DNA of 64,000 nt, taken from IMG/VR virus record IMGVR_UViG_3300031134_000001, positions 192,001-256,000 of that record. The stretch is one strand, 5' to 3'. The notes below the pieces were generated by a model. That model saw nothing but the letters and a program-made list of their open reading frames with translations. It was not told where the DNA came from and did no database searches. Position numbers and translations under genes: made by a program. The stretch is from a virus. Lineage: Duplodnaviria > Caudoviricetes. Shown here one piece after another: positions 1,957 through 63,317 of this stretch. Numbering within the stretch: the stretch's first letter is position 1; each line of letters begins with the position of its first letter.

Positions 1957-1958
1957 CC

Positions 1959-2243
1959 ATGTCAATCTATCCCAAAGATTGGCCACGACCTGACCATGTC
2001 CCGGACCATGCTACTCTCAGTAGCACTGAAGGTACACCGATGTGGGTGTGGCAAGGTGGTCCAGCGCGCCCTGAGCGATCAATCATTTCGGCGTATACTT
2101 TAAATTTTCTCGAACGAAGCCAGCCTAAGCGTGTTAAGTACACATCTGCTCGCGTTCTGCCACCTTTGAGTAAAATTGGATTGGCTGTGCTACTACTATG
2201 CAGAGGTAAGCATGAGAGCGCTGATGGTATAGACATCCATTAG
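1959..2243 (+). CDS. hypothetical protein
   Basis: ORF directly following the previous stop. Confidence 0.55.
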   Translation: MSIYPKDWPRPDHVPDHATLSSTEGTPMWVWQGGPARPERSIISAYTLNFLERSQPKRVKYTSARVLPPLSKIGLAVLLLCRGKHESADGIDIH

Positions 2244-2255
2244 GAAAGAAATACC

Positions 2256-2384
2256 ATGACAATGTACTTAGGGATTTGGATGGCGTTGATGGGTTGGACG
2301 GTAACGGTGGTTGATGGTTTACCAGTCTGGTCTCACGCTAGCGGATTGGTGATGTACAATCAAGGCCAAGATAAATCGCTGTGA
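2256..2384 (+). CDS. small hypothetical protein (42 aa)
   Basis: AGGAAAG RBS, ATG 2256 to TGA 2384; below the ORF-track cutoff. Confidence 0.4.
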   Translation: MTMYLGIWMALMGWTVTVVDGLPVWSHASGLVMYNQGQDKSL

Positions 2385-2409
2385 CGTAAACGGATAAAGG
2401 AAAAGAATC

Positions 2410-3969: not shown

Positions 3970-3978
3970 AGGATCATC

Positions 3979-4245
3979 ATGTTCGCATGGATTGGCAATC
4001 TTTTCTCACGGCCACCCAAACAAGTCCAAGTTGTCAAAGCAGGCGGTGTAGGTATACAAGCTGGGCGCTCGGCAAACAACGCGGTGGTGGCTAACTGGGA
4101 TTATCCAGAAGACCAGCATGCTCCAGAACCACAGGACGCGCCTAGTGGTCGTAACTGGATCGACCGACATCCGTATCGCTCTGACAATCGTAAAGCGCCT
4201 ACGGCGGCGTGTGGCCATCCCTGCGACACTTGCAAAGATAAGTAA
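3979..4245 (+). CDS. hypothetical protein
   Basis: AAGGA RBS; amphipathic N-terminus MFAWIGNLFSR; C-terminal CGHPCDTC. Confidence 0.7.
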   Translation: MFAWIGNLFSRPPKQVQVVKAGGVGIQAGRSANNAVVANWDYPEDQHAPEPQDAPSGRNWIDRHPYRSDNRKAPTAACGHPCDTCKDK

Positions 4246-4337
4246 TGGCGTGCACTTGTAAGTGTAGTCATTGCCAACAGATGGGCAATGTGCCAAACCC
4301 GAAACCCAAACCCGTTAAGCCGCCTAAGGCGAAATAA
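4245..4337 (+). CDS. Cys/Pro/Lys-rich micropeptide (30 aa)
   Basis: TAATG coupling with the upstream gene; MACTCKCSHCQQMGNVPNPKPKPVKPPKAK; ends just before the terminator. Confidence 0.45.
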   Translation: MACTCKCSHCQQMGNVPNPKPKPVKPPKAK

Positions 4338-4338
4338 A

Positions 4339-4360
4339 TAGAGGAGCTACGGCTCCTCTG
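4339..4360 (+). terminator. hairpin terminator
   Basis: AGAGGAGC-TACG-GCTCCTCT followed by GTTATGTTG. Confidence 0.7.
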
Positions 4361-4503
4361 TTATGTTGTCTGTTTTTCATGAATGATGTTTCCGTAGTAC
4401 ATTTTATGTCGAAACTTACGTGGTTTCATTTTGACAGACAACTGTATAGCGAGGACACTATCGTGACGTTCAATGTAACAGCCTTAAACGCGGAGCGTGA
4501 ATA

Positions 4504-11914: not shown

Positions 11915-12424
11915 GTGAACCAACCAATTGAACGCGGCAGCGCCGAATGGCATCGCCGAGTGCAGATGCTACTGCAAAAGCAAGTGGGTCTGATCAAAGA
12001 ACATGGCTATACGGTGCAGGGCGTATTTCCTAGCGACGAGGATACGCTGAAAGGTGATGGCAGCGACTCCTTCTTCTACACCATCGGTCTGTTCCAGAAG
12101 CGCTGGCCAGAGCTGCTGGTCTTGGGCGCACTGCACGGCGGTTCAGCTGCCGGTATCATCAAAGACGTCTACGACTTCTGGATGAAGAATGGTGACGCTT
12201 CGATCGGGGACATCCCAGCAGACGTGCCTGGCGGTAAGCTGCGCTTGAATCTAGTCCAACGCGGTGTCGGTCAGCAATTCACCGTCGGAGTTCGCACCTT
12301 CAAGCGCGACGAGATATACGAAGTGGTCCAGGTGCTCTGGCCCGATAACAAAGGTTGCCTGCCCGATGAGTCCGGTTATTCGACCGAAGCAGCACTCAAG
12401 CAAAAGATCTTGGAAAAGATTTAA
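11915..12424 (+). CDS. DUF4262-like protein
   Basis: HGYTVQGVF...FFYTIGL...PELLVLG and terminal QVLWPD.G.LP motifs. Confidence 0.65.
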   Translation: MNQPIERGSAEWHRRVQMLLQKQVGLIKEHGYTVQGVFPSDEDTLKGDGSDSFFYTIGLFQKRWPELLVLGALHGGSAAGIIKDVYDFWMKNGDASIGDIPADVPGGKLRLNLVQRGVGQQFTVGVRTFKRDEIYEVVQVLWPDNKGCLPDESGYSTEAALKQKILEKI

Positions 12425-12498
12425 TATCAAGGGCGTGACACCACCCCCCACGATCGTCAAATCCACACCCGTGGTCAACAACCGGAGTAATTGAACCC

Positions 12499-15046: not shown

Positions 15047-15054
15047 TCATTTAA

Positions 15055-15098
15055 CGGCATAAGACAGAGAGCCTTCGGGCTCTCTTCTTTTTCTATGC
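15055..15098 (+). terminator. CGGCATA-hairpin-TATGC element
   Basis: AGAGAGCC-TTCG-GGCTCTCT plus T-tract. Confidence 0.8.
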
Positions 15099-15117
15099 TT
15101 TCTTTTTTTGTTTCCTT

Positions 15118-15381
15118 ATGCCGCCTGATGTAGAACTCAAAGAATTGTTAAAACGCGTTCGCGCCTGGCACACAGTCAGGATGCGAAGATACAAGAACGA
15201 CTTACCGGACGACGTCTACTACGCCGCTTACTTACCCAGCTTACAATTATACCAACGCGCTAAGCAGAGTTACTACCTTAGCGATTTACGAGAACTGCGC
15301 ATTATTGCAAGATCCGTCAATTACCACATTGAACCGTGGTCAGTGACGGCGTGGTACGCGTTAAACACTAAGAAGGTGTGA
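15118..15381 (+). CDS. hypothetical protein
   Basis: 87 aa ORF, weak RBS. Confidence 0.55.
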   Translation: MPPDVELKELLKRVRAWHTVRMRRYKNDLPDDVYYAAYLPSLQLYQRAKQSYYLSDLRELRIIARSVNYHIEPWSVTAWYALNTKKV

Positions 15382-15395
15382 ATTTATTTCACGCC

Positions 15396-15403
15396 TATAT
15401 CAC
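15396..15403 (+). promoter_or_regulatory. putative early promoter TATATCAC
   Basis: TTTCACGCC-TATATCAC-TTAGGTG. Confidence 0.65.
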
Positions 15404-15484
15404 TTAGGTGTTGTAGAGAGAAAACAACAACAGTTCTTTTCGTTATTTGACTTACTTACAAAAATCAACTACAGGAGTTAGATC

Positions 15485-23037: not shown

Positions 23038-23395
23038 GATGGTGCATCTTGCAATTACCCGGCAGCTAAGTCGCTGGTCGATTGACTACATGCAGCCGTA
23101 TCAGTTGCTAACGCATTACTTGATGGCGTCGTACGCGTATTACATTCTAGCGGAAAGCGTATGGGTGGATGACGACTACGACTTTTTGTGTAGTCGGTTA
23201 TTAGAAGAGTTTGATAACTTCGAACACCGGCACAAACACTTAACTGGCGTCGATGCGTTGGGAGCCGGTACCGCATACCACCTAAAGTCGGAAGATTATC
23301 CACCTCAAATCCGTCATGGCTTTCCGACGTACATACGCAACATGAATGACGGCACCATCGAAAGCGACCTCTTAAAACAAGGTCGTTATAAATAA
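23027..23395 (+). CDS. stand-alone NAD-dependent DNA ligase domain-Ia-like protein
   Basis: YAYY......VDDDYDFL resembles LigA Ia YY.......D..YD.L; the start overlaps the NTase stop. Confidence 0.5.
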   Translation: MTRKMVHLAITRQLSRWSIDYMQPYQLLTHYLMASYAYYILAESVWVDDDYDFLCSRLLEEFDNFEHRHKHLTGVDALGAGTAYHLKSEDYPPQIRHGFPTYIRNMNDGTIESDLLKQGRYK

Positions 23396-23489
23396 ACATC
23401 GGGAACTACGATCGTTTGACAGATGCGCTTCCCTATGGCAACTGTTCGCGACGTAGTTAACCGCACAAAACTAATAAAGGAAAACAAGC

Positions 23490-40331: not shown

Positions 40332-40770
40332 CCAACAACAATACACCATCGACATTTACGAAGCCGTGGAGCGCTTTAACGGTTACCATCAAGCGTATGC
40401 TAACCTCGCAGTACCGGCGGCGCTACACCGCGAATACATCGACATGCTCATCGAGCAAATGATCGCGCACTTTGAAGTCGAGCGCACCGCAGTGCAGATG
40501 TTTGTCGGTCACTACACCCAGCTCATCACCGACCACTCCATCTCCCCACGCTTCAAATACCATCCGCTGAACTTCCTGCGGCAGATGGATAACGAGGGCT
40601 ACCGCAACTATATCTACTGCCTGTACGGTTTTGCTGAAGACATGTTCAAGATCTTCCAGGCGCATCAGTTCTACAATAGCCGCGGTATTTTGCTCGCTAG
40701 CTTTCAGCATATCAACGGGAACAATCTGTATCTCGTTGTCAGACCGGAGGTACCTGATGTCTTCCATTAA
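40321..40770 (+). CDS. hypothetical protein, LY-x-x-x-G paralog family
   Basis: QAHQFYNSRGILLASF. Confidence 0.8.
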   Translation: MATNQQQYTIDIYEAVERFNGYHQAYANLAVPAALHREYIDMLIEQMIAHFEVERTAVQMFVGHYTQLITDHSISPRFKYHPLNFLRQMDNEGYRNYIYCLYGFAEDMFKIFQAHQFYNSRGILLASFQHINGNNLYLVVRPEVPDVFH

Positions 40771-41257
40771 CGACAAAACTAGCTTTGCACCAGAGCCTCT
40801 GTATCCAGGAGATTACTACCTGGTCGATTGCGCCGAACCTATCAGTCGCTTCATGCAAACGCCGTACAACGTACGCATGCACATGGCGTCTGATTCAGAA
40901 GAGATGACTGAGTACGACATGGTTGATGTGGAGCTCACTGAACTGGTGGATGCTCTGGTGATGCGTAACCCAGTGGACCATCTGGACAACCACGCGGACC
41001 AGCTGTTAGAAGAAGGTACGAACGTTCTGCGTGAAGAAGCCATCATGCAAGGCATTCACAAAGAAGGTCAGGTCTATACCAACACACCAGTACAAACCCA
41101 ACACGCTGATGCTGTACTACAGCTCGGGTTTGATTTGTCACGACTCTTAAAGCAGTACGGGTTCTATCATGCAACGGGAATGTTGGCAGTAAAGTACCAT
41201 CAGTTACTGCCCAATGGATTGGTCGTATTTAGAAAAGAACCCACGCCGTATTACTAA
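40757..41257 (+). CDS. hypothetical protein, LY-x-x-x-G paralog family
   Basis: GGAGG RBS; KQYGFYHATGMLAVKY. Confidence 0.8.
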   Translation: MSSINDKTSFAPEPLYPGDYYLVDCAEPISRFMQTPYNVRMHMASDSEEMTEYDMVDVELTELVDALVMRNPVDHLDNHADQLLEEGTNVLREEAIMQGIHKEGQVYTNTPVQTQHADAVLQLGFDLSRLLKQYGFYHATGMLAVKYHQLLPNGLVVFRKEPTPYY

Positions 41258-41289
41258 ATACCACCATCTTATGTAAACAATGTTCCCCT

Positions 41290-41640
41290 AGCGTGACTTA
41301 CCGTGTAGCGTTAAGGTTAAAATGTGTCACCAGGCCCCAGCAGAGCCAACTTCGGGATAAACTCACTCAGTCGAATGAGGTTGGGGCGAAACAGGTGGTA
41401 AACGGTACGGGCCTTCTTCACAGAGCCAAGCTGTCATTAGGAATTTTCGGTCGAGCGCTGACGCGCGATTATTCGAGTGTGCAACGGCAACCCAGATTGG
41501 ATGATAGTCCTTCGTACTGCGAAGTCACGTTATCTAGTAAGGGTTGTCGGTGCGTAGGTTTCATGTGCCTACAAACTTCTTCGCGGCGCAGGTGCCGGGG
41601 TAGAGTTTTGCGACATGATGCTGTTTTCCTAAGTTTTTCT
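41290..41640 (+). ncRNA. candidate large structured ncRNA (copy B)
   Basis: Intergenic ~480 nt; helices GCCCCAGC/GTTGGGGC and CGGCAACCC/GGGTTGTCG; 8-bp long-range CGTGACTT/AAGTCACG pairing. Confidence 0.55.
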
Positions 41641-41643
41641 TTA

Positions 41644-41681
41644 GCACAGGAGCCTTCGGGTTCCTGTGTCTTTTTATGCCG
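41644..41681 (+). terminator. hairpin-TATGCCG element
   Basis: CACAGGAGCC-TTCG-GGTTCCTGTG then TCTTTTTATGCCG. Confidence 0.8.
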
Positions 41682-41743
41682 TCAATTCTTTTTTTGGTTA
41701 ATTCTTATGAGTCAACCCCTCGATAACCCTTACAGAGAACACC

Positions 41744-43186
41744 ATGCGAAAGTTTTCCTACGCAGCGCCTGTCGTAAAACTTCAACTGTCAGCTGAAGAA
41801 GAAGCCATTCAAATTGACGAAAGCAATCAGTCGGCACATGAGCTCGAACAAACCAGTGCAGACATCGACCGTCTCGGCGATATCGTCGTTACCGTCAACG
41901 AAGTGCAAACTGTCGTTAGTAATACACCAGAGATTCAACCGATCGATGCAGCGCTTACTGGCGCCGTTGGTGAAATGGCTGTAGCTGGCACCGATATCGC
42001 ACCTGACGATATCATCGAAGAGATGCTTCCCAGTGAAAATGTGAGCACTGAAAGCTTTGTGGCTGCTGCCAAAGAAAAGCTCGCCGCAATGTGGAAAGCC
42101 ATCAAAGAGTTCTTCGCTAAGATGTGGAAGCATGTCAAAGATTTCTTTGGCGTCGGTAAAAAGAAAGCCGAGAAGCTCGAAGAAAAGCAAAAGAAAACGG
42201 ACGAAAGCTACGCTCATTTGAAAGGCTTAGGCATTCATAACGAAAATGACTACAATGCCTTTGTGCGTGAAGTCGAAAAAGCAATAGACGCAGACGCTAA
42301 AAAAGCGGACAAGATTCCCACGTTCCATTTCTACAATCAAAATTCGAAGTTGTGTTTGGGCGATTCCACAAAACCACTTCCACCCCGCCAGTTGGTCGTT
42401 GAGTTGCAACATCTGCTCAAAGAAGGCGAACACATGTACAAGTCGTTTTGCGATGGCGTACTAAAGTTGCTCGACTACCTCGCCAACACTGTCGAACAAT
42501 GTTTGAAAGACCCAGAGCGCGCGGGTGATACGTATAAAGACATGCGTGAAGGCTATCAAAAGATTGCCGATAAGCTGTTCCTTGATCTGAAATTCCATAA
42601 CGGCACCACGCCTGGTCCGTTGCTGGGTGACCTTCATTTGGCAGTAATGAGTTATACACCGGGTGAAGAAAGAGGCACCATGTGGTCGCCGCGTATTCAC
42701 CTACCATTTACGATGGGAGGCGGCGCCGATGAAATTCAAGAACCGGTAATGTTATCGGATGGCGTCAAGTTAAGCGAGAATGTCCATGCCTGGATCAGGT
42801 TGACTAAAGGATTCTTCGGTCAAGAAATGGTCGAGAAGATCCAGCAGAAAAGCCAAAAGGTCGAAAGCCTTATCGAGCAGCTCATTAAGCATCGGCCAAC
42901 CGACGCCGAACTGCGTGGGGAGCACGTAGGCAAAGATGAAGACCCAATCGTCAAATATGCCGCAGGCGTGAGTAAGTTTGGGATCGATATAGCAATCGAG
43001 CGGCTGGCTTATGAATCTAAAGAGTTGGTCACTATGGGTGTGACGGCCGCTGTGAAACTGCCACAACGGATTCATCAGATCTTTGAAGTGGCAGCTGATT
43101 ACGCTGAAGCGTCGTCGATGTATCTGTTGAAGCACGGTATCGTTGGTGACGCTGCTGAAGCTGATTTTCAAAACAAATTGAAATAA
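41744..43186 (+). CDS. inner head protein, phiKZ gp93/95/97-like paralog family
   Basis: Acidic propeptide ending VSTES (S-x-E protease site) followed by the helix AAMWKAIKEFFAKMWKHVKDFF. Confidence 0.7.
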   Translation: MRKFSYAAPVVKLQLSAEEEAIQIDESNQSAHELEQTSADIDRLGDIVVTVNEVQTVVSNTPEIQPIDAALTGAVGEMAVAGTDIAPDDIIEEMLPSENVSTESFVAAAKEKLAAMWKAIKEFFAKMWKHVKDFFGVGKKKAEKLEEKQKKTDESYAHLKGLGIHNENDYNAFVREVEKAIDADAKKADKIPTFHFYNQNSKLCLGDSTKPLPPRQLVVELQHLLKEGEHMYKSFCDGVLKLLDYLANTVEQCLKDPERAGDTYKDMREGYQKIADKLFLDLKFHNGTTPGPLLGDLHLAVMSYTPGEERGTMWSPRIHLPFTMGGGADEIQEPVMLSDGVKLSENVHAWIRLTKGFFGQEMVEKIQQKSQKVESLIEQLIKHRPTDAELRGEHVGKDEDPIVKYAAGVSKFGIDIAIERLAYESKELVTMGVTAAVKLPQRIHQIFEVAADYAEASSMYLLKHGIVGDAAEADFQNKLK

Positions 43187-43232: not shown

Positions 43233-43589
43233 CTATTTCTTTTTTGCCCATTTCGGCAAAGGTACGGTCTTACCAGCTAACCCGTGTGGGCTATCGGAAC
43301 AGAAGTCGATCTTCCCATCCCGGATAAAGTAATGGCATCGGGTGTAATGTACCGGACGAATCTCTTCGTAGGCATTACGCGGCTCACTACTTTGAATACG
43401 CATGGACGGATTGAACGTGGGTTCGAGGTAGTTGTAATTAAACGTCCACAAGTTCCCTGCATCTCCCGTCACGTATTGGTGAGGTTCCTCACAAGCAGGA
43501 CACCAGTGATAGTAATACCATCGCCGATCGTCCACATTAAAGAAGCGGCGCAGGTAAGGACCGGCCTGCTCCATTTCATCGTAACGCAT
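43233..43589 (-). CDS. DUF6527-like Cys/His metal-binding protein
   Basis: CPACEEPH...WTFN...PTFNPS...CHYFIRDGKI.FCSD..H.LAGKTV.LP. Confidence 0.6.
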   Translation of the reverse strand: MRYDEMEQAGPYLRRFFNVDDRRWYYYHWCPACEEPHQYVTGDAGNLWTFNYNYLEPTFNPSMRIQSSEPRNAYEEIRPVHYTRCHYFIRDGKIDFCSDSPHGLAGKTVPLPKWAKKK

Positions 43590-43595
43590 TTCTTT

Positions 43596-44084
43596 TCACC
43601 ATTGCAAATAAACTGGTTGACTTTCTAGGCCCAGACTCAGTTTCTCTTTCAAGTACCAATGCCCAGGCTCGTTGTTCCATGATGGCTTAGGACGACCACG
43701 CACAAAGCCCAAACTCGTAAAGAGGTTAATGGACTTGGTGTTGGCGTCTTCAATCCACGATAGACACGGCGTGTGGTTGGCGAAGAAGGTTTTAAGGACC
43801 GACTTCATGATACCGCGCCCCTCATACTGCGGTAGCAGAAACAAGGTACCGGCACGCCAATACTCTTTCCCATACAGCTTACGCTGGACAGGTGTATGAA
43901 ACCCCACAGGCATGTCATGCGGGCCATACAGAATCACCACACACCGCGGTTTCTTTGGGATGACTTCCGTTTCATCACCCCCCAAGAACTTGCTCTTTTC
44001 AGCTGCGCGTAACACAGCTTGAAAGCACAAGGCTTGCTTGGGGGAGAGTTGGTCTAAGTCTAACGTTTTAACGACGTCTACCAT
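43596..44084 (-). CDS. GNAT-family acetyltransferase
   Basis: LLPQYEGRGIMK acetyl-CoA motif and NTKSINLFTSLGF. Confidence 0.8.
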   Translation of the reverse strand: MVDVVKTLDLDQLSPKQALCFQAVLRAAEKSKFLGGDETEVIPKKPRCVVILYGPHDMPVGFHTPVQRKLYGKEYWRAGTLFLLPQYEGRGIMKSVLKTFFANHTPCLSWIEDANTKSINLFTSLGFVRGRPKPSWNNEPGHWYLKEKLSLGLESQPVYLQW

Positions 44085-46310: not shown

Positions 46311-47873
46311 CTACATCCCGCCGTCAAAATCCCACATATTGGTTTCGCGTGGTGATCCAATTGGGCCTGCGCCCGGTTTACGCAACATCGTATCAGGACC
46401 ATCCAGATCGTCCAGGAGGTTACCGATTTCATGTAGTGGCCAAGCGCCGTAGTGATCGATACGTGGCGTCTGACGGGTCTTACGGTGCTTCCCACGTTGA
46501 ATGGTCAGGTACGGCTTGCCGTTGACGAACTCAATGTGTTGGAACAGTTCCAGGTCGACTTCTTGGTCCAGACGCTGCGAGCCATCGTAGTAGCCTTTGC
46601 CTGGCAGAATCTTGACGAAGTTGTTCTGACCGTCACGGTAGAGCTTCTTCGCATCCGACGACAACTGATGCGGGGTGATGAACAGAATGTGACGCGGCGC
46701 GCAGAAGTTACGCAGCCGGCGGAACATGTCACGGATATCCGAACCAGCGGTGGTGTGGATACAGCCGGTGGTAGGCAACATCGCCAAGTAGTCGATGAAC
46801 AACGCCACCACTTCAAAGCCTTCAGATTCCAACTGCAAGACTTTGTTCTGCACGTCCAGGTACGTCCACTCCGAGGGATTGACCCGCAGCATGCGGATCT
46901 TGAAACCCGTGGCGGTCATGCGCGGAATGAAGTAGTCGGTCAGCTCTTCGTTCGACAGCGAAGGAATGTCCGGCAACGTCTTAACCGCATCGTGCTTGTG
47001 CTCGTTGGTGTAGAACTGTTCGTACAAGAACTGGAAGTTTTCCCGCAGACTGTCTTCCAGCGAGATACGCAGCAGCACTGGCTTCTTGGTCGGGTCACGC
47101 AAGACTGGTGTGTTGTGCACAGCGATCTGGCGGAACTGGGTTAAGTTCGTACCGGTCTTGAAGTTGTGCGGCAACGCAGCAGGACCAATGACCGCTTCGC
47201 CACGGCGATAACCACCGTCGAGCATACGGTTCATGCCTTGCAGACCCAAACGCAGGATCGTGCCACCTTCCTCGTTCTCTTTGACTGACTGGAAGATATC
47301 GCGCACTTCTTCCGGCTTACTAAAGTCCACCTCGTTGACCACTGCCGGATCTTTCTCCAGTGTGTTGGTCGTGTAGGGTTGGAGCTTCTCCATCGTTTCC
47401 ATGACGTACGTCGGCATGGATTGGATCTTGTTCTTGTTGAACTTGATCTTACTGAATGCTTCGACGATGATCTTCTCGACTTCTTTGCCGCGGAAGTAAT
47501 TACGGATTTGGTTGCGCAGATTGAGGATCGTGCGTTTCAGCGCATTGTCTGACAGTTCTGGCAGGATGCCGCCTTGCATGGCTTCGAAGGTGATATCGTC
47601 GTCACCGCAATTCATCTTCAAACGTTGCAGCAATTCGTTTGGTTCATACTGCAAGTCATACGGCTGGCATGCCATGTAGTACGCGGTCTCTTTCAGACCA
47701 GCGAGCACTTCGGCAGAGCGGTCACGGATATCACGTCCTAAGGATATGTCAGAGACCTTCGCTTCTTCAACGACCTTCAGTACATCTTCGGCGGCATTAT
47801 TGGTATGACCTACTTGTTGACTTTCCCGGAACAAAAGGGTAATCGAATTGACCAACAGTAATTTGATGTCCAT
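46311..47873 (-). CDS. dnaB: DnaB-like replicative helicase, phiKZ gp118-like
   Basis: GGYRRGE...ALPHNFKTG, ISLED, FIDYLAML, FITPHQLS, LDQEVDLE motifs. Confidence 0.85.
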   Translation of the reverse strand: MDIKLLLVNSITLLFRESQQVGHTNNAAEDVLKVVEEAKVSDISLGRDIRDRSAEVLAGLKETAYYMACQPYDLQYEPNELLQRLKMNCGDDDITFEAMQGGILPELSDNALKRTILNLRNQIRNYFRGKEVEKIIVEAFSKIKFNKNKIQSMPTYVMETMEKLQPYTTNTLEKDPAVVNEVDFSKPEEVRDIFQSVKENEEGGTILRLGLQGMNRMLDGGYRRGEAVIGPAALPHNFKTGTNLTQFRQIAVHNTPVLRDPTKKPVLLRISLEDSLRENFQFLYEQFYTNEHKHDAVKTLPDIPSLSNEELTDYFIPRMTATGFKIRMLRVNPSEWTYLDVQNKVLQLESEGFEVVALFIDYLAMLPTTGCIHTTAGSDIRDMFRRLRNFCAPRHILFITPHQLSSDAKKLYRDGQNNFVKILPGKGYYDGSQRLDQEVDLELFQHIEFVNGKPYLTIQRGKHRKTRQTPRIDHYGAWPLHEIGNLLDDLDGPDTMLRKPGAGPIGSPRETNMWDFDGGM

Positions 47874-60959: not shown

Positions 60960-63317
60960 GTGAGTTCAAATAACTATCAGATTTATATCAATCAGACTTT
61001 GCAGCTGGTCGAGACGATCGTCATCAAATCGTCCACAACAGCGCGCACTCTTAACGAGTGGGTCGCAGCTGCTATGGCAAGTGGAGGTTATTTCGCCTCG
61101 ATCGACCCTGAACCAACCACATGGAAATATTACCTTAATCTTGCTGGAGAGTACCATAGCATCGACGAAGTGATGACCGTCGTATCCATGGACACTCTGG
61201 AGGAGATCGTTTTCAACAAAGCCAACATGGTGATCCATCGCGCCACAGCGCGAGCTTACCAATACGGCACCAAGCAGTACACCGATCTGGTGGCACGTTT
61301 TCCAAGCCAAGAGCAACTCATCTTGGGCATCTTGTATCCTACCGATATCGACAAAGCAGTCGCGGCCAAAGACGGTGAGATTTTATCTTACCCGCCAGGC
61401 TTGGTAGAAGAAAACGAATACAGCTTGATCAGCAATCTGCAAAAATGGATTTACCATTACAAGCAGCGCTGGCATGTGCCGGGCTTTGACTACACCGACG
61501 AATTGTACACCGCCACCATGTTGGGCAATATGTACTTGCTCCTGGTGCAGGCCGTACTAACGTTTCGTCTGTCTGTGTGCAACACGAACGAAGCACACAG
61601 CTTTCATATTCGGGAGTATTTAGCAAGTCATGGTTTCCTGGACAAGTACTTCGATTCAATGACCAAGAAACAAGCGCTGTACTTCTATCGTAACATCGCC
61701 TACATCGAGCGTCATGCCGGCAAAAATGTTACCTTGGACACATTAATCGAGCATATCATGACCGAGCGTCAGATTCCGCTTGGTGAATACAGCATGAAGC
61801 ACGATGTGACTGACCAGACCGAGACCTTGTATCCTGAAGTCATTTTCCGCAAACGTCAGCTGAACCTGGGCATTATCCTCTCGGACGATAATCGCATCAC
61901 GGTGCCTGAAATGCTGGAGAAGGAAAAGTCTCTGGCCATTGGTAACACGACAGACATCGAAGACGTGTCGGCCAACATCAAAGACTTGATGGAAAACTCT
62001 CCATCAAACGTGGTGGCCACCAAGGTACTTGAGTCGTCGATGATCGATGAGACCAACAGTTCGCCATGGATCTTAAGTGAGGTGCTGTTTAATCATTGGT
62101 TGCTGTTAAGTAGCCAGGGCATCTATACGGCCTACATCAACATCAACAATCCAAAGACGGGTGAGCGCATCCCGTTAACGGCCAAGGAAGCGTTTGTTTT
62201 TGCGCTGTACGTCTTTGCCAAGACCGTGGGTGAAACGTTGGTAACAGTGCCGCCAGCGTATGCTAGCCGGGTGCAGCGTATCCCTACGCCGAGTGTTGAC
62301 GATATCTATTCGATCGTGGACCATAAGCTCATCGGTCGTGAAACAGCAGTTGCCGCGTTGGCTGAACAACCCAAGATCCGGTCATTGATTTCGATCGATG
62401 CGTTCTACAATCTGGGCTCACAGATCAACGACGCCATGCAAATGCAACGCCGCTTGATTGCCCGCCAAGAGCATCACGAAGGTCGGGCGATGGTCCAACA
62501 GATGGTCACGCGGATCTATAGCGACCAGCTGATCGAACTGGAACCAGAAGGTACGCTCTACGACAAGTGGCTCTCTTCACGCAACATTGAAGTGTCATCC
62601 TTCTCGCGGGCTGAGTTTGTGCTTCTGTATAACGACATCGTCTCGCAAGCCACGGGCGCGAGTTTGCATCCGATGCAGTCCATGGCGATCTTGCAAAAAG
62701 ACATGGTGAACATGCTGACGCAGTTGTCGTCGTATGGTATCCAAGTCATTGCGGAAATCAACGACTCGACCATTCGTAAAACAGACTGGCCTGGTGCACG
62801 GTTAGGCACGGTCACGGGATCGATCTCGAACAACCCGAAAAATCCCGATGCGGTCATTGGTCTGGATCGCTTTAGTGCTTCGGTCTCGATGGACGTGATC
62901 GTGGACATGAACCTGCCGGGCGTGGGTCCGACCATCAAGCAGTACGGCACGCACCACGTCGAAGTGGATCTGGCGATGAACGCTGAGTTGGTGGCCAAGC
63001 CCACGACGTTTATGTTTAAGTCGCCGATTGGGAATTTGGGCATCACAAGTCCTGATCCGAAAGACGTTGTGATTCCGCGTGGTTGGGTCTCGTTCATTGG
63101 TATTGAATACTTCTTGTCGTTAACGCCAGAACAGATTGGTGACATCGAAGATCCATACAACCCACCAGGCACCTGGAACCCACCACGTAAAACACCACTC
63201 AATCAAGTGATCGTGATTACGGATCTTAACGGCTTGTACTTAACGGATGGCGACCGGGGCGAACCGCTCTCGCGTAGCATCACTGAGACCAAGTTGGGCA
63301 AAACTTACCCACAGTAA
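60960..63317 (+). CDS. virion structural protein (phiKZ gp128-like, putative baseplate)
   Basis: TWKYYLNLAGEYH, QELILGILYP, HSFHIREYLASHG, QLSSYGIQ motifs; GTG start. Confidence 0.65.
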   Translation: MSSNNYQIYINQTLQLVETIVIKSSTTARTLNEWVAAAMASGGYFASIDPEPTTWKYYLNLAGEYHSIDEVMTVVSMDTLEEIVFNKANMVIHRATARAYQYGTKQYTDLVARFPSQEQLILGILYPTDIDKAVAAKDGEILSYPPGLVEENEYSLISNLQKWIYHYKQRWHVPGFDYTDELYTATMLGNMYLLLVQAVLTFRLSVCNTNEAHSFHIREYLASHGFLDKYFDSMTKKQALYFYRNIAYIERHAGKNVTLDTLIEHIMTERQIPLGEYSMKHDVTDQTETLYPEVIFRKRQLNLGIILSDDNRITVPEMLEKEKSLAIGNTTDIEDVSANIKDLMENSPSNVVATKVLESSMIDETNSSPWILSEVLFNHWLLLSSQGIYTAYININNPKTGERIPLTAKEAFVFALYVFAKTVGETLVTVPPAYASRVQRIPTPSVDDIYSIVDHKLIGRETAVAALAEQPKIRSLISIDAFYNLGSQINDAMQMQRRLIARQEHHEGRAMVQQMVTRIYSDQLIELEPEGTLYDKWLSSRNIEVSSFSRAEFVLLYNDIVSQATGASLHPMQSMAILQKDMVNMLTQLSSYGIQVIAEINDSTIRKTDWPGARLGTVTGSISNNPKNPDAVIGLDRFSASVSMDVIVDMNLPGVGPTIKQYGTHHVEVDLAMNAELVAKPTTFMFKSPIGNLGITSPDPKDVVIPRGWVSFIGIEYFLSLTPEQIGDIEDPYNPPGTWNPPRKTPLNQVIVITDLNGLYLTDGDRGEPLSRSITETKLGKTYPQ

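Follow-up and report, generated by a model that had tools for sequence, protein, structure and literature searches.

Some stable, structured RNAs encoded by phages act in trans or are presumed to do so, among them the pRNA of phi29 and the stable RNAs species 1 and 2 of T4 (rnaC and rnaD). The pRNA, 174 nt long, is associated with the packaging motor; the T4 stable RNAs are excised from a tRNA cluster transcript. GOLLD (RF01998) and ROOL (RF03087) are large, ornate phage-borne RNAs, often located beside tRNA genes. In the nucleus-forming jumbo phage phiKZ, noncoding RNAs (ncRNAs) derived from 5′ untranslated regions (5′UTRs) were reportedly described by Gerovac and coworkers in 2021, as cited by Putzeys and coworkers. 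The phiKZ candidates of this kind, associated with premature termination and about 90–200 nt long, were treated as leaders (PMC10914365; Putzeys et al. 2024). Here, we analyze a noncoding gap in a 64,000-nt stretch of phage DNA (the window, bases 192001–256000 of an IMG/VR virus record of 271 kb that has direct terminal repeats), and find that positions 41270–41676 are a genuine structured ncRNA unit, conserved at a fixed genomic place. Its predicted product of about 400 nt (41273–41675, bounded by a TATG motif and a terminator) is called B-type RNA, or B, to distinguish it from another RNA of the window, copy A, to which a preliminary description had likened it. Coordinates are those of the window and, unless otherwise indicated, of the plus strand.

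B shares with the phiKZ 5′UTR-derived ncRNAs a nucleus-forming jumbo phage background, the succession of promoter (a predicted one in B), structured RNA, terminator, and same-strand gene, and conservation among close relatives. It differs from them in its size, its seven covarying helices and pseudoknot, the promoter-like words past its terminator, and the lack of any sequence match to a record of the phage collection. Like GOLLD and ROOL it is large and ornate, and its putative A-type paralogue lies in a tRNA cluster; on the other hand, it is smaller, gives no match to their covariance models at an expectation value (E-value) of 10, and occurs in lytic jumbo phages with Pseudomonadota-type relatives, not Bacillota or Bacteroidota. 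Copy A would, as the T4 stable RNAs are, be cut from a tRNA cluster transcript, whereas no sequence or structural likeness to the T4 RNAs or to the pRNA was seen, and the link of B with packaging is limited to its head-gene neighborhood.

None of the 4227 models of Rfam 15 (including GOLLD, ROOL, RNase P, tmRNA, 6S, group I/II introns, riboswitches, and self-cleaving ribozymes) matched B at gathering score, nor was any match obtained at E-values up to 10 on 41200–41760 or up to 1 on five homologous loci; the only Rfam matches in the window are tRNAs and a weak hammerhead before copy A. Sequence searches of a named phage collection with B and with A returned no match, and no description of B was found in the literature. 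B is a new family within the known, loose kind of large structured phage RNAs of unknown function. The preliminary description, which had presented it as a structured phage ncRNA of a possibly undescribed family, is in this respect borne out by these negative Rfam searches and by the covariation and coding analyses reported below.

A structured RNA at a fixed genomic place

Homologues of B were identified at seven loci (L003, L004, L005, L007, L019, L021, and L030; five IMG/VR and two metagenome contigs), all of them syntenic, that is, upstream of a gene for a phiKZ-type internal head protein and on the same strand. A search with the DnaB helicase of the same genome returned five IMG/VR contigs at 75–86% identity and later a sixth at 59% (the 322-kb record G006). 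In four of the first five, nhmmer detected the gap RNA at the syntenic place (E-values from 1e−53 to 5e−20), and the fifth gave no nhmmer match at its locus. Two metagenome contigs that are 96% alike, L019 and L021, as well as a duplicate of L007, came from an exact-pattern scan. Two covariance models of the B-type RNA were built (R1 and R2), as well as one (R3) of copy A and its homologue A′ in the 272-kb relative G003; R1 revealed the copy in G006 (E-value 2e−15). Further pattern scans yielded the same few contigs in IMG/VR and nothing in 185,579 prokaryote genomes. Burkholderia phage FLC9 had no match to R1, R2, or R3, and Ralstonia phage RP12 none to R2 or R3. A third-copy candidate at genome positions 12408–12441 (E-values 0.02–0.09) lies inside long open reading frames (ORFs) and was taken as a chance match. 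With at least eight B-type and three A-type sequences, the family is not the two-member one announced previously. We lean, by a small margin, toward a family restricted to one lineage of uncultivated jumbo phages of the nucleus-forming type.

Covariation was assessed on model-based alignments of eight sequences, the helices being derived from RNAalifold and pair counts. In the 3′ domain, 91.7% of the cells are paired and the covariation reaches 0.451 versus 0.187 in shuffled alignments, none of 500 shuffles being as high; sliding the partners by one to three columns leaves 32–46% paired. The 5′ core behaves similarly, with 93.1% of the cells paired and a covariation of 0.423 versus 0.238, again equaled by none of 500 shuffles. 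B thus displays compensatory helices together with the lack of a conserved ORF, the generic signature of a structured ncRNA.

The 5′ part opens with hairpin H1 (41287–41316; 41287–41294 with 41308–41316; 11 pairs, 4 of them changed on both sides, 94.8% of cells paired), whose loop holds GACUUACCGUGU. Within this loop, the 5′ strand of H2, UACCGU (41299–41304), pairs in all homologues with ACGGUA (41402–41407), contained in the invariant block AAACGGUACG (41400–41409; AACGGU.CGGG is invariant in all homologues), so that the loop and ACGGUA can form an H-type pseudoknot. Between the two strands lies the H3 domain (41326–41399), in which a stem GUCACC/GGUGGU (about 41326–41331 with 41394–41399; 5 pairs, 3 changed on both sides) surrounds an insert of variable length that carries a conserved GGUAACUUCGGGAGAAC hairpin and is mostly deleted in L007 and G006. 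H4 (41410–41427; 41410–41414 with 41423–41427; 5 pairs, 3 changed on both sides) is set flush between GUACG and AAGCUGU, and is followed by the conserved single-stranded block AAGCUGUCA (41428–41436). This block reads AAGYUGU, with Y as its sole variable position among the B-type RNAs; the three A-type RNAs all have AAGUUGU. RNAalifold also proposed an alternative ACGGU/GYUGU helix around H4, which we rejected: it is invariant, and mismatched in the A-type RNAs.

Further 3′, H5 (41446–41477) is a two-tier hairpin (UUCGGUCG.GCGC...GCGC.CGA..UCGAG) pairing 41446–41453 with 41466–41477 and, in its inner tier, 41455–41458 with 41461–41464; 85.7–97.5% of its cells are paired, and changes from C-G to U-A occur. 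Support is strongest for H6 (41481–41553), a long hairpin of 41481–41493 with 41541–41553 (12 pairs, 92.7% of cells paired) with CGGCAACCC (41485–41493) and GGGTTGTCG (41541–41549) at its base. It corresponds to the helix that the preliminary description had seen as closing the 3′ domain, and is kept in eight homologues with 7 of the 12 pairs changed on both sides. H7 (41554–41572), GUAGG(U)/(G)CCUAC, pairs 41554–41559 with 41567–41572 in the single-sequence fold; equivalents of different sequence were read by eye from the alignment in all homologues. A closing helix between AGGAGGGA and the UUUCCUU tail gave duplex energies no better than those of shuffled tails and is left as a possibility, and an all-against-all covariation scan for further long-range pairs was dominated by noise with seven sequences.

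The words on which the first structural proposal was built are all present in the window: TATG at 41270–41273, CGTGACTTA at 41292–41300, ACCGT at 41300–41304, ACGGT at 41402–41406 followed by ACG, AGAT at 41494–41497, ATCT at 41532–41535, the two strands at the base of H6, and AAGTCACG at 41522–41529, a perfect complement of 41292–41299. The proposed ACCGT/ACGGT pairing is the H2 described here and is compatible with all homologues, though nearly invariant within B, in which it varies by wobble only (C>U in L007, A>G in G006); its middle pair is C-G in seven B-type and A-U in three A-type RNAs. In contrast, the pseudoknot claimed between the first 8 nt and AAGTCACG does not hold and is not beyond chance, a Watson–Crick partner existing in the window only. 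There the partner lies in the variable H6 tip (about 41494–41540), an insertion that most homologues lack and that is absent or different in the others; in L019 the partner would form 3 Watson–Crick and 5 G-U pairs, and five others have no partner. The inner AGAT/ATCT helix and its 3-bp hairpin, both located in this same tip, are likewise not beyond chance.

Taken alone, the fold of the single sequence is weak evidence: without the terminator its z score is −1.44, 10 of 100 shuffles folding equally well, and the terminator contributes much to the −3.4 obtained when it is included. The case for a structure therefore rests on comparison, which itself involves seven distinct B sequences of one lineage, part of whose covariation may reflect shared descent, and an H2 that is almost invariant among them.

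The gap contains a GTG-initiated ORF of 167 aa (41293–41796), whose translation had been put forward as a possible objection to an RNA. It is not a gene: its codon log-odds score relative to the long genes of the genome is −38.5, it has no PHROG match, and no homologue keeps it or any other frame. Moreover, invariant blocks alternate in the alignments with stretches whose indel lengths are not divisible by three. Frequent G-U pairs assign the RNA to the plus strand, whose fold is better than that of the minus strand by 28 kcal/mol.

The unit is bounded by conserved signals. The TATG at 41270–41273 lies 14–16 nt before H1 in all seven distinct homologues, although the sequences flanking the motif differ. 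The non-virion RNA polymerase of phiKZ uses TATG as its late-promoter motif and starts at the G (PMC4666361). By analogy with phiKZ, and from its conservation, we infer that this TATG is the late promoter of B, with a predicted start at G41273. At the other end, a strong intrinsic terminator (41644–41675) consists of a G+C-rich hairpin (41644–41669; 11-bp stem, UUCG loop) and a U-tract (CTTTTT), as in Rho-independent termination, and corresponds to the UUCG terminator of the preliminary description; it is kept in all homologues with changed stem sequences. Immediately after it, TATGCCGTCAA (41675–41685), a recurrent word conserved past the terminator in the homologues, is a predicted separate late promoter of the head gene, and a TTATGA follows 30 nt beyond. 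The word TATGCYGTC(A) occurs behind hairpins at six or more genome sites, copy A included. This combination of hairpin and word is probably a terminator plus a strong late promoter; the head gene would therefore have its own promoter and B would be a separate unit. Its recurrence also suggests a longer promoter consensus than the bare TATG of phiKZ. The cassette, a G+C-rich hairpin directly followed by TATGCYGTC(A) and lying 30–75 nt before a gene at the plus-strand sites checked, was observed at positions 61801(+), 193210(+), 233675(+), 235193(−), 22970(−), and 10062(−) of the genome, and at 1210, 41675, and 43193(−) of the window.

Copy A and the shared 5′ module

Copy A (857–1200), an A-type RNA with homologues in G003 and G006, is preceded by a candidate hammerhead ribozyme (771–856) with a predicted cut after C856. 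The Rfam match is weak (22.2 bits, below the Rfam cut-off), stem II carries a large three-hairpin insert, and the element overlaps the end of an ORF. The full catalytic core is nevertheless there, and core and stems are kept in G003, where the cut site is GUA instead of GUC and compensatory changes affect both stem I (CGUA/UACG to GGUA/UACC) and stem III (CGCUC/GAGCG to CAUCUC/GAGAUG). Cleavage would leave U857 as the 5′ end of copy A. No ribozyme was found upstream of B by the Rfam search on 41200–41760 at E-values up to 10. In G006, R3 gave a weak full-length A-type match (15.7 bits, E-value 0.05 over 437 kb). This candidate (L045, 16285–16735, minus strand) lies between tRNA-Ser and tRNA-Met genes on the same strand, lacks a hammerhead, carries CCUAACAGUGG, AAACUGUAUG, a GCUGU/ACAGC helix, and AAGUUGUA, and extends the A family to a third genome. 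The tRNA cluster around copy A (60–536 and 2753–2837) comprises Gln, Asn, His, Thr and, further on, Leu genes; its G003 counterpart shows two extra weak tRNA-like matches (about 31.5 bits) beside tRNA-Gln.

The preliminary description had attributed to A and B the same architecture and a matching pseudoknot topology, neither of which is supported. Neither blastn-short nor nhmmer matched A with B. When R1 was run with its filters off, A was not among the matches at E-values up to 10 in the window, the A and A′ stretches scoring from −5 to 0.4 bits. R2 did not match A, nor did the hidden Markov model (HMM) of B at E-values up to 1000; R3 had no match to B in the window; and in a weight-matrix chain of B blocks, A was not among the top sites of the genome. 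In alignments made by sequence (MAFFT) and not by a Sankoff-type method, the structure conservation index of A and B was 0.11 for the 5′ domains and 0.10 at full length, against 0.13–0.17 ± 0.06 with shuffled partners and 0.40 for A with its true homologue. The joint A/B alignment is no better than its shuffled controls (0.11 versus 0.13 ± 0.06), and the claim of a whole-molecule family therefore fails. A structure-only descriptor retrieved seven unrelated matches in 1.73 Mb, indicating that structure alone is not specific.

What survives of the resemblance is a short 5′ module, found in the same order and context in three A-type and seven B-type RNAs of three genomes. A covarying hairpin of 5–6 bp has a loop of 13–16 nt reading (A)CU(Y)A(A)C-N-GUG; 56–101 nt further on comes RAAC-N′-GURYG, in which N′ is complementary to N (A-U in every A-type, C-G in every B-type RNA); and a covarying helix follows, flush after RAAC-N′-GURYG and flush before AAGYUGU. 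In copy A, these elements are H1 (865–869/883–887), ACAGU (874–878), AAACUGUACG (957–966), H4 (967–970/1017–1020), and AAGUUGU (1021–1027). On both strands of three complete genomes (1.73 Mb), the first two module words co-occur within 50–140 nt at five A/B loci only, while about 0.02–0.08 chance co-occurrences are expected from single-word counts. In A, 8 nt separate the module from the ribozyme cut; in B, the distance to the predicted start is 14 nt. A and B share a short pseudoknotted 5′ module and not a whole architecture, and common descent of this module seems reasonably probable.

It is possible, if the less likely option, that A and B are unrelated RNAs whose common words reflect chance or convergence, B being a family of its own. 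All the A-versus-B searches cited above were negative and the structure conservation index did not exceed that of shuffled partners, in line with such a view; in addition, the module was defined after both RNAs had been seen, its significance is approximate, and neither covariance models nor HMMs link the two types. On the other hand, 10 RNAs keep the order and context of the module with an N/N′ pair switching from A-U to C-G, its words co-occur nowhere else in 1.73 Mb, and it is located 8–14 nt from the predicted 5′ end in both types.

Genomic setting

Upstream of B, a gene encoding 166 aa (40757–41257) has no Pfam or PHROG match; the C-terminus of its product is conserved in homologues, and its ESM Atlas model was poor (predicted local distance difference test, pLDDT, 0.34) and gave no usable match. 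The downstream gene (41744–43186) encodes a phiKZ-like internal head protein (PF12699, 33.1 bits for a cut-off of 27) and is the same downstream neighbor of B in all homologues. Used as queries alone, the flanking proteins retrieved no relatives, and the FLC9 homologue of the head protein has no such gap upstream. Just past the head protein gene, on the opposite strand (43233–44084, minus), are encoded a DUF6527 protein and a protein weakly similar to GNAT acetyltransferases.

Burkholderia phage FLC9 and Ralstonia phage RP12 encode DnaB helicases 43–47% identical to that of this genome. Metagenomes from the phyllosphere, straw, dairy, food production, and wastewater contain near-identical DNA. 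When 41000–42200 was compared with public runs, two isolate-type runs contained DNA 85–99% identical over B and its upstream gene, and a cultivable host–phage pair may therefore exist.

According to a rough codon-based caller, many gaps of 300–1500 nt without a plausible gene are scattered over the genome, for example, at genome positions 46794–47381, 76310–77111, and 190043–191590 and at window positions 1957–2409, 3970–4503, 15047–15484, and 23038–23489; with nhmmer, none of them resembled the A or B RNA.

Possible functions of the B-type RNA

We slightly favor, over its competitors taken together, a B that is a stand-alone, stable, trans-acting late RNA of about 400 nt, specific to one jumbo-phage lineage. 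Late in infection, the non-virion RNA polymerase of the phage would initiate on the G of the conserved TATG, and the terminator would release the RNA. The head gene would be served by its own TATGCCGTCAA promoter, making B a separate transcription unit and not a leader. B would be stable and act in trans, the most probable role being that of a scaffold or decoy for proteins, with a recognition surface made up of the invariant single-stranded blocks and the pseudoknotted 5′ module. The A-type RNA, located in the tRNA cluster of each complete genome, shares only this 5′ module, which it carries on a different body, and this suggests a common handle with different effector domains. We favor this reading because B has its own conserved start and stop signals, because it is large with invariant unpaired blocks, because the same module recurs in a putative paralogue of quite different setting, and because the RNA core, but not the neighboring late gene, is represented in an RNA-labeled run.

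This run, from wastewater and labeled RNA-Seq/cDNA, contains four contigs, on 41310–41490 only, three of which are at least 99% identical with a depth of 15–45 (adapter letters flank one of them), and no contig on the genes flanking B; a second run of the same study covers 41270–41310 and 41432–41582. Such coverage is no more than suggestive of expression.

Several points argue against a trans-acting late RNA. The RNA-seq-labeled runs were flagged as possibly DNA, and contigs, which show neither ends nor strand, are no direct proof of a discrete transcript. The promoter role of TATG is borrowed by analogy from a distant phage. A scaffold or decoy is guessed at by exclusion, and searches turned up no target or partner protein. 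Lastly, the gene that directly follows the unit is always the same and has the same orientation, as would also be expected of a leader.

Such a cis-acting leader or attenuator is the main alternative, though we consider it unlikely. B would be the long 5′UTR of the head protein gene, tuned by conditional read-through of the terminator, which is how the short 5′UTR-derived RNAs of phiKZ with premature termination operate. The fixed place in all homologues would be explained, and phiKZ offers a precedent with 17 such 5′UTR candidates, some of them confirmed by Northern blot (PMC10914365). This reading is at odds with the conserved TATG words between the terminator and the head gene, and with a length of 400 nt and seven helices, far above the known size of attenuators. 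It would also have to accommodate terminator stems that vary in sequence; no conserved alternative pairing of their 5′ strand was seen, though no systematic search was made. The RNA-seq-labeled run covers the core of the RNA and not the head gene, and the A-type RNA with the same 5′ module is located in a tRNA cluster and not before a head gene.

More improbable still is an antisense regulator, in which the tail of B (UUUCCUUAG; AUGCUGUUUUCCU in the window) would pair with Shine–Dalgarno and start regions of phage mRNAs and repress translation. The idea stems from a pyrimidine-rich, anti-Shine–Dalgarno-like motif, AUGCUGUUUUCCUAAG (41618–41633), whose UUUCCUUAG is kept in 6 of 7 tails, with weak statistics, and from the perfect complementarity (12–13 nt) of 41618–41630 to AGGAAAACAGCAT(G) at four real gene starts. 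However, the word is absent from G003 and G006, where the homologous genes keep only a generic UAAGGAAAC, the estimated chance of any 12-mer matching some start region is about 0.09, and the tail may instead pair with the internal AGGAGGGA, a duplex no better than those of shuffled tails. The genes of 142, 168, 459, and 222 aa at genome positions 9612(+), 46277(+), 177694(+), and 861(−) all start with the identical word AAGGAAAACAGCATG, to which the tail of B is exactly antisense over 12–13 nt.

Finally, it is hardly credible that the gap encodes a protein (the 167-aa or a small ORF) or acts as a DNA-level element such as an origin or packaging site, since the open frame of 167 codons and a 15-codon minus-strand ORF behind a good ribosome-binding site are set against the codon score, the lack of a conserved ORF in any frame, the indels not in threes, and a covariation with G-U pairs that points to an RNA on one strand.

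A more far-reaching and rather doubtful reading is that nucleus-forming jumbo phages of this lineage make a modular set of stable RNAs. Different bodies would be joined to the same pseudoknotted 5′ handle (H1 loop paired with AAC-N′-GURYG, flush helix, AAGYUGU), which would either recruit a single protein or adopt a single tertiary fold. The A body would be freed from the tRNA transcript by the hammerhead, and the B body would be produced from a late promoter beside head genes.

Few large structured RNAs have solid comparative support, and the phage examples, such as GOLLD and ROOL, mostly still lack a function. Further members can be collected with the covariance models of this study. B adds an RNA of about 400 nt, with seven helices and a pseudoknot, to phages that build a nucleus-like compartment, in which RNA traffic and RNA–protein machines are poorly understood. 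That each genome carries a second RNA sharing the 5′ module only leads to a testable idea, that of a common handle with different bodies; a modular set, if true, would represent a class of ribonucleoproteins or catalytic RNAs that is new for phages, each genome having two paralogues.

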